Virus genome (UHGV): UHGV-0351052
Strand: one strand, 5' to 3'
From: a virus
Length of the DNA: 64,000 nt
The position numbers and the translations under genes were made by a program. The notes under the pieces were generated by a model that did no database searches, was not told the origin of the DNA, and was given only the letters and a program-made list of their open reading frames with translations. Below, piece by piece: positions 9,751-58,005 of the stretch. Numbering within the stretch: the first letter of the stretch is position 1; each line of letters opens with the position of its first letter.

Positions 9751-9758
9751 TATTTATA
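9751..9758 (-). promoter_or_regulatory. T4 late promoter TATAAATA upstream of soc
   Basis: plus-strand tatttata = minus-strand TATAAATA about 32 nt before soc ATG. Confidence 0.55.
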
Positions 9759-11595: not shown

Positions 11596-11796
11596 ATGGT
11601 ACAAAAATTAATGGCACTTGTTAATGCCATAAAAGGTAATAAGAAACGTATAGCTTTTACTATTTCTGCTATGATAGGAATTTTACTTTGGAATTTTGTT
11701 TTATCGCCAGTTGCTATTGCTCATGGCGTTAGTATTCCAGTAGTTACTCTTGATACATTCGTAGATTTAGCATTTGCTTTAGTTGGGTTAATTTAA
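11596..11796 (+). CDS. small two-helix hydrophobic protein, 66 aa; only intergenic plus-strand ORF in window
   Basis: AAAGGAGG about 5 nt before ATG 11596; no competing minus-strand ORF in the 305-bp dam-61 gap; convergent overlap with gene 61 stop. Confidence 0.35.
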   Translation: MVQKLMALVNAIKGNKKRIAFTISAMIGILLWNFVLSPVAIAHGVSIPVVTLDTFVDLAFALVGLI

Positions 11797-12821
11797 ATCT
11801 TAGCATATTTAGATAGCCGCATTTTAGCCATCAACCCCTGGGCAATATTATTTTTCATATATTCCATAATTTGTTCAGGGGTTGCACCTTCCTTTCTAAT
11901 CATATCATTAACATCTTTTGATTTCCAGGGAGATTTATCCCAAAACATAACCCTTTCTCCTGCATCAACTAATTTAGTCATTCGTTTAATAGTGTCAGGG
12001 TGACGAGGTTCATTATCTAAGACCCACACTCGTCTATCTTTAAATGGAACAACTTCTAGGTCTAATTGACCACCCGTAATAGCTATACCATTTTCAATAA
12101 AAAGTGAATCTATAGGTCCTTCTAGAACATATACATCACCATCTTTAACTCGTTCGACTCCATAGATTTTTGTTGCCTCAGGATAAGCTTTGATGGTGAT
12201 ATATTTTTGAGGAGCATCTTTCTTTAATGCACGTCCTTGAAAAGACTCAGCTTTTCCATTAGCATTATAAATTGGAATAACAAGACGAGGCTCAGAAATT
12301 TCCTTTTTGTATGTTCCCGGTGCTATGCTATTAACCAATTTAGGCCATTCGGTTGTAAACCAAAGATATTTCCATTTATCCTTTGGAATACAACGAGCTT
12401 TTACGTATTTTATAATTGGATGGTCTTCCGCCAGTTTATCTAATCTAACACATGACGGAAGAGATTTAATTATTTTCTTCTCAGGTTGTTTAGGAAGTTC
12501 TTTAGGTTTTTCTACTGGACGACTTTTACCTTTTTCTTTTCTTATTTCAAAGATATACTCACGATATAAATCAGGTTCAAACTCCTTTAGATATATTCCG
12601 ATTGGTGCATGATAGTTACAGTTATAACAATGAATATTTCCTTCATTATTATCACCATAATACCATCCACGGGCTTTATTTTGGTCGGTTTTTGAATCTC
12701 CACAAACAGGACATCTAAACCGTAATTTAAAAGTTGAACTATTATTTACTTGTGTGAATTTAGGTAAATGAGCTAATGCACGGTATGCGAACTCATTATC
12801 AATCCAAGGTATTGATGACAT
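11793..12821 (-). CDS. 61: DNA primase gp61
   Basis: 342 aa; N-terminal zinc ribbon CPVCGDS...CYNCNYH; Toprim-like core. Confidence 0.9.
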   Translation of the reverse strand: MSSIPWIDNEFAYRALAHLPKFTQVNNSSTFKLRFRCPVCGDSKTDQNKARGWYYGDNNEGNIHCYNCNYHAPIGIYLKEFEPDLYREYIFEIRKEKGKSRPVEKPKELPKQPEKKIIKSLPSCVRLDKLAEDHPIIKYVKARCIPKDKWKYLWFTTEWPKLVNSIAPGTYKKEISEPRLVIPIYNANGKAESFQGRALKKDAPQKYITIKAYPEATKIYGVERVKDGDVYVLEGPIDSLFIENGIAITGGQLDLEVVPFKDRRVWVLDNEPRHPDTIKRMTKLVDAGERVMFWDKSPWKSKDVNDMIRKEGATPEQIMEYMKNNIAQGLMAKMRLSKYAKI

Positions 12822-12823
12822 TT

Positions 12824-12988
12824 TTACTCTTCTTTTTCTTTAGATTCCTCTTTTTTCTTTTTAGGAATCTGTTCAGGACCTTTATTTACTACAGCACCTG
12901 ATGTTGTTCCAGTAGAGATATTTTCAGGATTACCACCTGAATCTCCAGCAACCATATCTTCTTTGATAAATTCTTTATATGTTTTCAT
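12824..12988 (-). CDS. 61.1-slot small protein, 54 aa, with internal-protein-like N-terminus
   Basis: hand translation MKTYKEFIKEDMVAGDSGGNPEN...; N-terminal 10 aa match the start of the ipIII-like ORF. Confidence 0.4.
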   Translation of the reverse strand: MKTYKEFIKEDMVAGDSGGNPENISTGTTSGAVVNKGPEQIPKKKKEESKEKEE

Positions 12989-12989
12989 A

Positions 12990-13616
12990 TTAACCTCTAT
13001 TCATAAAAGCATTAAAAATTTGGTCATCAATAGAAACATTTACTTTAGACTGTTTTTCAGATGGCAATTCATATCCACATATTACAATTTTATGATCAAT
13101 ATCAAAATACACAGAAGCAATATGATTAATGATGTTTTCAGTAAAGTCTAAATCAACATCAATATCTTTTTGACCACAGCCCAAAGGATAAATAATGCGA
13201 GTAATTCGATTATCTTTAACAAATATTCCACCGACATACTCTGTGCTGCGTTTAAAGTCTACACGCCGACGAAATGAAAAATATTCAGGCTCTTTATGAG
13301 CTCGGCTCATAGGGCACAACGAATAACTAGAATAAGAGATGTCAAATCCTACGCCTTCAATATGAACTAAATTGTCATGATTAAACCAATTATAATCATA
13401 TGCCAAGTCCATTAGATTGTCATATGTAAAAGGCACCGGATTAACATCATTGGTCACAAGCATATAATTAGCAACTGCTATAATTTCATTATTTTTAACG
13501 AATACAAACCGTGATTGATGCGAATGACCTGGACCTGCGTTTTCACGATTAATGATATAACACTGGGCACCTTTATATTTGTACGTGTCTTTACACTTGT
13601 GCATTTGATAAAGCAT
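12990..13616 (-). CDS. 61.2-slot protein, 208 aa (T4 61.2/AdfA-like by position)
   Basis: size and synteny; no motif verified. Confidence 0.45.
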   Translation of the reverse strand: MLYQMHKCKDTYKYKGAQCYIINRENAGPGHSHQSRFVFVKNNEIIAVANYMLVTNDVNPVPFTYDNLMDLAYDYNWFNHDNLVHIEGVGFDISYSSYSLCPMSRAHKEPEYFSFRRRVDFKRSTEYVGGIFVKDNRITRIIYPLGCGQKDIDVDLDFTENIINHIASVYFDIDHKIVICGYELPSEKQSKVNVSIDDQIFNAFMNRG

Positions 13617-15907: not shown

Positions 15908-16270
15908 TTAAAAGAATTTAAATTTTTTCTTTGACCTTTTATTAAATGCATCTTGCAGTTGCATTGTAATACATTTTTCTACATGAGGAGCTAACTCAGC
16001 TTTTCTTTCTTGGTCAAGAACAGCAAAGTCCATTACAACCTTTCCATCAACCCAATCCAGTTTAGTTACATACACTATATGTGTAGAACCATCTTCTAGT
16101 TTAATGACAATCTCCTGGATAACATTTTCCATAGCGGATTTAATTATCTTAAGAGACTCATTAAAAAGACGTTCTTTTCTTTCTTCTTCCCCCTCCGAAG
16201 AGGGGGATTCATCGATAATTTCTAGATCTAAATCTAAATCATCTTTACTCATTAAATTCTTCCATATCAC
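15908..16270 (-). CDS. hypothetical acidic protein, 120 aa (gene 40 slot)
   Basis: position between 41 and uvsX; no motif. Confidence 0.4.
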   Translation of the reverse strand: MIWKNLMSKDDLDLDLEIIDESPSSEGEEERKERLFNESLKIIKSAMENVIQEIVIKLEDGSTHIVYVTKLDWVDGKVVMDFAVLDQERKAELAPHVEKCITMQLQDAFNKRSKKKFKFF

Positions 16271-55767: not shown

Positions 55768-56148
55768 TCAATTAGAAAATAAATTTATCCAAGATTGTTC
55801 TTTAATTAAAAATGGCTCAGAATCATATGCCATTAAACTCTGTGTGATTAGTCCTTTAAAAGGCCCATCAATAAATTCCATGGTAAAATATGGAATTTTA
55901 TTCATTAGCCGTGCATTAGGAGCAGTGCACAAAACTCTGCATCCTTTGAATACACCTTTTTGTAATTTGTATTGCTTGGGATAAAATTCGCTCAAAATGT
56001 TATTTTTTGCCAAAATTTCAAAATGATTCACCAATTTATTTTTAATAGTTTTTGGCGAAAAATAAAGATATTCGAAAAGCTGAGTGTCTGTCATCATTGC
56101 ATTCCGATTACGAAAAACTGTGGACGAGTAATACCACCAATGCAACAT
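55768..56148 (-). CDS. hypothetical protein, 110-126 aa
   Basis: ORF-track ORF; start region overlaps end of upstream ATPase ORF. Confidence 0.4.
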
Positions 56149-56681
56149 TTAATATTACAGCAGCAGTGTACAGTGTCAATATGGACACTATAAATCTTAT
56201 CCATATCAGGAGATTTGACAGGCTCATCAATTATATACAAAATTCGCGAAAGCGATAAACCTCTGAACTTGCTTCCTTTATTACCAATAAAACTGCGCAC
56301 AGAATCAGTAAATAAACGAAAACGTATATCATCATTAGAATAACGCGAAAATTCCTTTTTAATATTATCTGCGGAAATTTTAGCGTAAGCTGAAGTATTA
56401 GAAAGAACAATAACTGTTCCACCGTCATACAACCAATTAGCGGCAAAATTAGTTACTGCAGTTGATTTACCGGATTGACGTCCACCATCTATACGAAGTG
56501 TGCAATACTGTTTAAGTAAGTCTTCAAATGGTGGGATATAATCGTTTTTACAAATTTCTTCTACTCTAGCATCAGAATGGTGTGTAAAAGCATTCATCAG
56601 GGATAGATAAGGACCAGTTAAAAATGTTCTCATTTTGTTCTCTCTAGGTTTGGGCCATTCCATGGCGCATGAATTGTCCAT
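56094..56681 (-). CDS. small P-loop NTPase, 179-195 aa
   Basis: Walker A GGRQSGKST, Walker B ILYIIDEP. Confidence 0.5.
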   Translation of the reverse strand: MDNSCAMEWPKPRENKMRTFLTGPYLSLMNAFTHHSDARVEEICKNDYIPPFEDLLKQYCTLRIDGGRQSGKSTAVTNFAANWLYDGGTVIVLSNTSAYAKISADNIKKEFSRYSNDDIRFRLFTDSVRSFIGNKGSKFRGLSLSRILYIIDEPVKSPDMDKIYSVHIDTVHCCCNIKCCIGGITRPQFFVIGMQ

Positions 56682-56810: not shown

Positions 56811-57386
56811 TTAATTACCACGGGCCGCATTAGCAACGGCGTAAGCATACTGAACATTAGCGTCCTTAAACGTACCTTTAGAGGTATCTATTTCTGCCTT
56901 AAAGCCGCCTTTAGCCATAACATCGGCAAATTCTTTACGGAAAGCCATTGCATCAAGACCTTTCCATGATGATTTATGCTTGGCAAATTCAAGACCAGCG
57001 TAGTTGACAGCCTTAGCTAATTTATTATCAATAACCCATTTACCAGCTTTAGGCACAAACACCGGGCCTTTCTGTTTGGAGAATAGTTTTAAATTCCAGC
57101 GACGAAGGTCACCGTCAGCTTTAACAAAAGCTGCGTCCAAGTTACTAGCAACAACATCTTGAATATGGCCAAATTTAAGCCCATCAACTTCAATATTTAG
57201 ATCGGTACGCCAGCGAAGTCCTTCCCAAGCGAAGCCTTTAAAGTCGGAAGCCTTTGTAGCTAAGTACCGTTCAATAGGAGCTGTTTTAGGGTCAAAGCCG
57301 TTTCCTCGGTAAGTCCACTCATCTTTATTAATGCCTTTGGCCTTTTCCACAGAAGCTTCGGCGATAAATTCTTTATACGTTTTCAT
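56811..57386 (-). CDS. ipIII: internal protein (ipIII-like), capsid-targeted
   Basis: N-terminus MKTYKEFIAE = T4 internal-protein capsid-targeting sequence; 191 aa, basic; just downstream of e. Confidence 0.6.
   Translation of the reverse strand: MKTYKEFIAEASVEKAKGINKDEWTYRGNGFDPKTAPIERYLATKASDFKGFAWEGLRWRTDLNIEVDGLKFGHIQDVVASNLDAAFVKADGDLRRWNLKLFSKQKGPVFVPKAGKWVIDNKLAKAVNYAGLEFAKHKSSWKGLDAMAFRKEFADVMAKGGFKAEIDTSKGTFKDANVQYAYAVANAARGN

Positions 57387-57474: not shown

Positions 57475-58005
<531 letters not shown>

Follow-up and report, generated by a model that had tools for sequence, protein, structure and literature searches.

What is the 54-codon open reading frame (ORF) lying directly ahead of the primase gene of a T4-type phage, when its first ten residues almost repeat the leader of an internal head protein encoded elsewhere in the same genome? 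We study this question in a window of 64,000 nucleotides, the whole stretch of viral DNA analysed here (UHGV-0351052), which comes from a T4-type phage (Tequatrovirus); around gene 61 its identity to ECML-134, fPS-2 and T4 is about 98%. The features of the locus are the following.

12824..12988, minus strand: the 61.1 orthologue ORF, with an ATG start, 54 codons and a stop, translating to MKTYKEFIKEDMVAGDSGGNPENISTGTTSGAVVNKGPEQIPKKKKEESKEKEE.
12994..12997, minus strand: Shine-Dalgarno sequence GAGG, 5 nt 5' of the 61.1 ATG, as read from the sequence.
12990..12992, minus strand: stop codon TAA of gene 61.2, between the GAGG and the 61.1 ATG, 1 nt before the ATG.
11793..12821, minus strand: gene 61 (primase), directly downstream of 61.1, a neighbourhood kept across phages.
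12959..12988, minus strand: leader MKTYKEFIKE (residues 1-10), like a capsid-targeting sequence (CTS), matching the leader of IPIII in the window and aligning with gp23 residues 56-65.
12959..12967, minus strand: I8-K9-E10, a putative gp21 site, with E10 on gp23 E65 in the alignment.
12875..12958, minus strand: DMVAGDSGGNPENISTGTTSGAVVNKGP, the N-fist-like module formed by residues 11-38, with homology to gp23 residues 66-93.
12827..12874, minus strand: residues 39-54, EQIPKKKKEESKEKEE, a charged tail; by alignment all orthologues have a Lys/Arg-rich one.

The ORF is taken as a real gene because it has a Shine-Dalgarno sequence, because it is tightly joined to both 61.2 and 61 (the ATG of gene 61 is read 2 nt past the 61.1 stop), and because it is conserved, with tblastn detecting 61.1 orthologues in more than 1400 phage records. 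Since it is placed between gene 61.2 (adfA) and the primase gene 61, it is by position and sequence the orthologue of T4 gene 61.1 (T4 protein UniProt P39228). The gp61.1 of the window is 96-100% identical to those of T2, RB14, T6 and T4-type phages, and the ORF matches phrog_1823, the short form of the family, over its full length with an E-value of 7e-34, and phrog_2086, the long form, with 2.6e-16. In the PHROGs search all matches are to families without assigned function; Pfam and NCBIfam scans of the short and long forms give no match, and in the literature searched on gp61.1, P39228, virion proteomics and the KP15/KP27 proteomes we find nothing on the function of gp61.1 or its presence in virions.

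The leader is compared below with that of the following gene.

56811..57386, minus strand: ipIII-like gene for an internal head protein, the comparator, with leader MKTYKEFIAE at 57357..57386.

This ORF matches phrog_5341 'internal virion protein' with an E-value of 2.5e-116, and its product shares 178 of 193 aligned residues with T4 IPIII. The initial annotation had pointed out that 9 of the 10 leader residues agree between 61.1 (MKTYKEFIKE) and the ipIII-like protein (MKTYKEFIAE), and had called the former a CTS ending in an I-x-E protease site. The match is confirmed as the sole one of its kind: when every ORF of at least 25 aa initiated by ATG, GTG or TTG is scanned in six frames, only these two reach at least 5 leader matches out of 10, and as no third ORF in the window does so, the agreement is not due to chance. 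On the DNA level the two genes share 24 of the first 25 nt counted from the ATG, with no similarity upstream. The leader of the window also agrees at 8 of 10 positions with the CTS of T4 IPII and IPIII, MKTYQEFIAE, while the pair within T4 itself is less alike (61.1 with MKTFKEFIKE, 7 of 10). According to a review (PMC9026906), the first 10 residues of IPIII are enough for incorporation into the head (Mullaney and Black 1996), residues 4 and 7 of the CTS are important for targeting, and 8 and 10 for its processing. All four of these genetically important positions are retained in the window 61.1 as Y4, F7, I8 and E10, so that, judged by sequence, the leader is CTS-like as annotated: about ten residues with an aromatic residue at 4 and Phe at 7, closed by an (L/I)-x-E motif, here I8-K9-E10.

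Compared with the CTS of IPII and IPIII, which gp21 cuts after Glu10, 61.1 likewise has a 10-residue N-terminal leader and has Met-Lys-Thr, the aromatic residue 4, Glu6-Phe7-Ile8 and Glu10 in common with it, but carries Lys instead of Ala at position 9 and Asp instead of Ala at P1'. The gene also differs from the ip genes in being located outside any ip locus and in having no late promoter, and its product differs from the internal proteins in what follows the leader, which is conserved and capsid-like in 61.1 and a variable effector in the latter. The leaders of gp24 (MAKINELLRE|S) and Alt are similar in kind, as short N-terminal propeptides with a hydrophobic-x-Glu end that are removed in the prohead, although their identity to 61.1 is far below that of the internal-protein CTS.

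Some further observations concern the ip genes themselves. Relative to T4 ipIII (locus L096, 1587..1616), the window ipIII leader (57357..57386) has codon 5 changed from CAA to AAA and codon 8 from ATT to ATC, and both changes yield the 61.1-type sequence AAAGAATTTATC; codon 4 of 61.1 is TAT in the window (Tyr4, IP-type) and TTT in T4. Short-patch recombination has possibly taken place between the two leaders, and because the window ipIII bears 61.1-type codons 5-8, the leaders of 61.1 and ipIII may be interchangeable. At the place of T4 ipII (T4 order denV-ipII-ipIII-e), the window has at 56094..56681 on the minus strand a 195-aa ORF with a Walker-A-like GRQSGKST, which in Klebsiella phage KP185 has a counterpart bearing the annotation 'terminase family protein', and the phage of the window seems to have no ipII at this denV-ipIII site.

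The main new result concerns more than the leader: residues 1-43 of gp61.1 are homologous by sequence comparison to residues 55-98 of gp23. In BLASTP, 61.1 residues 2-38 align without gaps to T4 gp23 57-93 with 43% identity (E-value 1e-8), the junction reading FIKE|DMVAGDSGGNPENISTGTTSGAVVNKGP in 61.1 and FLTE65|AEIGGDHGYNATNIAAGQTSGAVTQIGP in gp23. When a profile of 13 short-form orthologues is searched against 177,635 distinct PDB sequences, only T4 gp23 chains are matched, with E-values of 8.9e-6 for the precursor and 4e-4 for mature gp23*; the profile-profile comparison of 61.1 and gp23 by hhalign gives 97.4% probability and an E-value of 1.2e-11 over 44 columns. A six-frame hmmsearch returns only 61.1 from the window and returns gp23 from a T4 control locus. 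Against 1.84 billion proteins the short-form profile gives 51 matches, all 61.1-like, with no gp23 at E<=1e-3, and hence it is the PDB profile search, hhalign and pairwise BLAST that carry the homology.

In the alignment, Glu10 of 61.1 falls exactly on Glu65, the maturation cleavage residue of gp23 (L-T-E65|A66), and residues 11-36 correspond to gp23* 66-91, which form the N-fist (PMC7136217). Structural work places gp23* residues 66-105 inside the unexpanded head, disordered and probably contacting the scaffolding core (PMC9546572; PMC9958956); on expansion the N-terminal region goes to the outside and forms the N-arm and N-fist (PMC9546572; PMC9958956; PMC7136217), and in the expanded head the N-fist touches four subunits and helps to build the Soc site (PMC9546572; PMC9958956). 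The N-fist-like module of 61.1 alone is predicted to be disordered (pLDDT <50), like the gp23 N-fist before expansion. We further compare both proteins in seven genomes, namely T4, Jiaodavirus KP185, Krischvirus RB49, Aeromonas SW69-9, Slopekvirus KP27, Acinetobacter Konradin and Mosigvirus OLB35. In all seven, the spacing from the cleavage Glu to G-P is identical in 61.1 and gp23 (28 residues), and the invariant G-D, G, I-A, G, G-A and G-P positions of the two families coincide; H72, Y74 and T89, which are invariant in gp23, are not retained in 61.1, where small residues stand in place of H72 and Y74. Pairs of 61.1 and gp23 share 14-19 of 32 residues in every combination of these genomes, and the relation is, from these comparisons, an old paralogy under common constraint. 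Recent gene conversion or tight co-evolution between 61.1 and gp23 was also considered and is rejected, as pairs from the same genome (the diagonal) show no excess among the seven.

The homology to gp23 is thus ungapped over about 40 residues, covers the cleavage Glu and the entire N-fist, that is the maturation junction with the segment behind it, and has Gly, Pro, Ile and Ala at the same positions, whereas gp61.1, with 54 residues and no Pfam or NCBIfam match, has neither the A and P domains of the HK97-fold body nor a hit to a capsid family profile, and has a charged tail standing in for the gp23 N-arm. By its sequence gp61.1 is no major capsid protein, only a fragment paralogue. Its orthologues bear the name 'major capsid protein' or the name 'major capsid domain-containing protein' in many GenBank and UniRef entries, and such names, on the same comparison, over-annotate proteins of 50-165 aa that share only about 40 residues with gp23. 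In the literature searched we find no description of the CTS-like leader of gp61.1 or of its homology to gp23.

On the whole, orthologues of 61.1 occur in T4-like phages of Escherichia, Klebsiella, Aeromonas, Acinetobacter and Vibrio, and they come in two forms. The short forms, with 50-70 aa, are found in T4, Jiaodavirus, RB49 and Aeromonas phages, and the long forms, with about 155-165 aa (phrog_2086), in Mosigvirus, Slopekvirus, Karamvirus and the Acinetobacter and Vibrio T4-like phages. The two have the same module, hydrophobic-x-Glu junction, basic tail and place beside the primase, but differ in that the long form has, ahead of the common C-terminal module, a conserved and mostly helical N-domain of about 105 aa where the short form has its 10-residue leader. 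The AlphaFold model of one long form is of low quality (mean pLDDT 61.6), and a Foldseek search with it against viral models finds only family members and unnamed larger proteins.

Conservation among orthologues, which had been suggested as a check on the CTS claim, speaks for it. Among the proteins of two large searches and 78 IMG/VR loci, a Glu is located 1-3 residues ahead of MVAGD in 114 of 117 distinct junction octamers, 101 of them in the gp23 register, and P3 is L, I, V, M or F in 110 of the 114 junctions bearing Glu. The known gp21 sites show the same (L/I)-x-E pattern: L-T-E65 in gp23, L-R-E10 in gp24, and I-A-E10 in IPII and IPIII. A CTS-like pattern (aromatic-x-x-hydrophobic-hydrophobic) is present in 26 of 38 distinct short-form leaders, for example MIKFKDFVE|S, MKIKTFDEFVE|AMVAGDHG and MRLMKTFNEFLKE|AEVSGD, some of which are more gp23-like past the cut. 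The leader motif of 61.1 resembles the internal-protein CTS as well as the stretch F59-G-S-F-L-T-E65 that closes the gp23 propeptide.

Several observations on the wider family are added here. In environmental phages, proteins of 188-195 aa (phrog_18642) carry the long-form N-domain followed by some 90 aa of an unrelated C-terminal domain and have no N-fist module (loci L052, L056-L058, L060, L063-L065, L079, L090 and L091, with the ORF starting at about 3001). Their genes are not beside helicase or primase homologues and their neighbourhoods are uninformative; those in L057 include a virion/baseplate-like protein and an ATPase/kinase-like protein. In some other 61.1 relatives (P0159, P0173 and P0177; locus L051, 2995..3732) the sequence runs on beyond the basic tail, first into another motif resembling a leader, M.E..F.QF.E, and then into a domain of about 90 aa, and from their sequences they look like 61.1 fused to a downstream gene with a CTS-like start of its own. 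In addition, several T4-like genomes of IMG/VR show partial tblastn matches to long-form 61.1, with a very short in-frame ORF where the match begins, at L061, L062, L066, L069, L070, L073, L076 and L077, which may be frameshifted or decaying copies of 61.1, or an artefact of the simple ORF call.

The neighbourhood of 61.1 is the other source of evidence. In the window the gene order is 41, dmd, 61.4 (tifA), sp, 61.2 (adfA), 61.1 and 61, a region which Srikant et al. name an anti-toxin island, and the initial annotation had put an injected effector inside this 61.1-dmd counter-defence cluster. However, 61.1 is directly upstream of the primase gene 61 in the window, in T4, in seven diverse phages and at the majority of the 78 IMG/VR loci, including phages that have none of those genes there: helicase, 61.1 and primase follow one another without intervening genes in Aeromonas SW69-9, Vibrio VH7D and many IMG/VR phages, and dmd of RB49 is about 50 kb away from 61.1. 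These arrangements indicate that the defence genes are insertions between 41 and 61.1; by this comparison 61.1 predates the T4 insertions of dmd, tifA, sp and adfA. As it remains next to the primase in phages where the island genes are missing or lie elsewhere, its adjacency to dmd, tifA and adfA says little about its function, and this part of the annotation is not borne out. Like 61.1, dmd, tifA (61.4) and adfA (61.2) are small early genes transcribed in the same direction in T4-type phages, but they have no sequence kinship with 61.1, which is far more widely conserved, and neither homology to anti-defence genes nor linkage to the island is seen for 61.1. As a separate observation, gene 40, for the head vertex assembly chaperone, is located in the window at about 15911..16255 on the minus strand, just upstream of the helicase gene 41, so that one head-morphogenesis gene already lies within the early replication cluster.

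Regarding expression, a T4 transcriptome and proteome study classes 61.1 as early, and the gp61.1 protein is not found in the part of its infection proteome tables that was searched. The late promoter TATAAATA was searched in the window, with the following matches nearest to the ip genes.

57983..58003, minus strand: two TATAAATA late-promoter matches, upstream of e-ipIII, none of which serves 61.1.

Apart from these, the minus strand has matches only at 9751 and 51213, and from 12988 to 51213 on this strand there is none, so late-promoter expression at the time of head assembly is not indicated for 61.1, while early synthesis could still supply the protein. A scan for sigma-70-type promoters around 61.1 stays at background level. 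In a CRISPRi-ART screen of T4, knock-down of 61.1 has no fitness effect (score -0.84, p 0.93), and any role of the gene in the laboratory host is accordingly accessory. The T4 head mass-spectrometry paper searched, with its supplements, does not mention 61.1.

Taken in this light, our preferred reading is that gp61.1 is targeted to the prohead and cut there by gp21 after Glu10, leaving a 44-residue peptide; it is a tentative reading, to which we give a probability of roughly 45%. Gp61.1 would be a protein of four parts, an amphipathic 10-residue leader of CTS type, a hydrophobic-x-Glu site for gp21, a paralogue of the N-fist with 26-28 residues, and a Lys-rich tail. This architecture is established from the alignments, as are the homology to gp23, the family-wide cleavage-type motif and the position by the primase. 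The leader, junction and basic tail together would dock the protein on the acidic core of the prohead, in the way of the internal proteins or the gp23 N-terminus, and gp21 would then cut after Glu10 to give a peptide starting DMVAGD and carrying DMVAGDSGGNPENIS(T/I)GTTSGAVVNK, with a non-tryptic N-terminus. The peptide might remain inside the head as one of its minor internal peptides, or bind the capsid lattice as a spare N-fist, and gp61.1 would be an accessory, dispensable component of the head. We infer targeting, cleavage and what becomes of the product from the CTS-type leader, the gp21-type site at the position of the gp23 cut, the core-facing nature of the homologous gp23 segment, and the basic tail. 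The tails of the core protein gp67 in KP185 and RB49 are highly acidic, and could be binding partners of the basic tail of 61.1.

The earlier suggestion that a small Gly/Lys-rich peptide is packaged in the head agrees with this as regards the leader, but misses that the peptide is no arbitrary cargo, the module being a paralogue of the gp23 junction and N-fist. Several results count against the prohead reading. With an early class and no late promoter, gp61.1 would need to persist until the head is assembled; the long forms begin with the N-domain of about 105 aa and not with a CTS; the putative gp21 site has Asp at P1'; the protein does not appear in the T4 head mass-spectrometry paper or in the infection proteome tables searched; the lack of a knock-down effect makes any structural role dispensable; and neither the failure of the 1.84-billion search to return gp23 nor the missing same-genome excess is in its favour.

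The first alternative, which we regard as rather unlikely, is that gp61.1 never enters the head and is an early cytoplasmic mimic of the gp23 junction and N-fist, occupying a sensor or Abi trigger that recognises gp23, a protease or a chaperone. The early class given in the T4 study and the lack of a late promoter would be explained, and so would the strong homology to gp23, the proximity in T4-type phages to the proven anti-toxin genes adfA, tifA and dmd, and the dispensability in the laboratory host, as expected of an accessory gene. Residues 93-122 of gp23, right after the stretch homologous to 61.1, form the Lit-activating Gol peptide, and hosts sense this part of gp23, which also favours a mimic. 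However, the homology ends at gp23 93-98 and does not cover the Gol peptide, and with H72 and Y74 replaced by small residues gp61.1 would be a poor decoy for a sensor specific to these side chains; 61.1 does not track the gp23 of its own phage, it is older than the anti-toxin island, and the CTS-like leader of the short forms is left unexplained. A likeness of 61.1 to the Gol peptide itself was considered apart from this and is rejected, as the homology stops where that peptide begins.

A further reading, unlikely as well, is that gp61.1 might be a free-standing capsid arm whose N-fist-like peptide, once cut by gp21, docks in N-fist sites having no donor, by the gp24 pentamers or the portal, or that competes for a partner of the gp23 junction, such as the core, the protease or a host sensor. 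If this were true, the phage would tune the assembly, stability or sensing of its capsid through a separately encoded fragment paralogue of its own gp23, with the corollary that the internal-protein CTS descends from the end of the gp23 propeptide ([F/Y]-x-x-F-[L/I]-x-E).

The version of the initial annotation, that the peptide is packaged in the head and injected with the DNA as a counter-defence effector like IPI*, appears improbable to us. The leader and cleavage site would suit it, anti-restriction factors are known to be injected as internal proteins (PMC3012670), and adfA, sp, tifA and dmd adjoin 61.1 in the window. Yet the cargo is a capsid paralogue conserved from Vibrio to Acinetobacter phages, unlike the fast-evolving and host-specific internal proteins (PMC9026906), the adjacency to defence genes stems from insertions between 41 and 61.1, and the gene has no late promoter.

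Similarly improbable is a role as accessory factor for the helicase-primase in replication, with the similarity to gp23 as an evolutionary leftover having no function in the capsid. In support of it are the invariant place directly upstream of gene 61 and often directly after the helicase gene 41, the early class in the T4 study, the basic tail, which could bind nucleic acid, and the distance of 2 nt between its stop and the start of gene 61, a spacing that would allow translational coupling. The synteny is weak evidence, though, because core gene order is conserved generally in T4-like phages; no fusion of the N-domain with helicase or primase is found among annotated phage records, the N-domain is also present away from replication genes, and the invariant gp21-type motif and the Gly/Pro skeleton of the N-fist would have no explanation. 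Finally, an upstream frame serving coupled translation of primase, or a decaying remnant, with a leader match acquired by short-patch recombination with the ip genes, would fit the tight gene junctions, the 24 of 25 nt shared with ipIII and its 61.1-type codons, and the apparently disrupted copies (e.g. L061, L069 and L076), but is highly improbable given the amino-acid conservation with invariant positions over more than 100 divergent sequences and the maintenance of both short and long forms.

Overall, the analysis concerns a widely conserved gene of T4, the best-studied phage, and corrects two of its labels, 'major capsid protein' for a 54-aa fragment paralogue and that of a member of the anti-toxin island for 61.1. 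From its sequence, 61.1 probably acts in the phage head and not as a defence-island gene, and gp61.1 resembles a head protein bearing a CTS, its membership in that class being putative. If the prohead idea is true, gp61.1 would be a new component of a capsid already solved to near-atomic resolution, would tie the origin of the CTS to the propeptide of the capsid protein itself, and would give the T4 protein-packaging platform a second natural leader.
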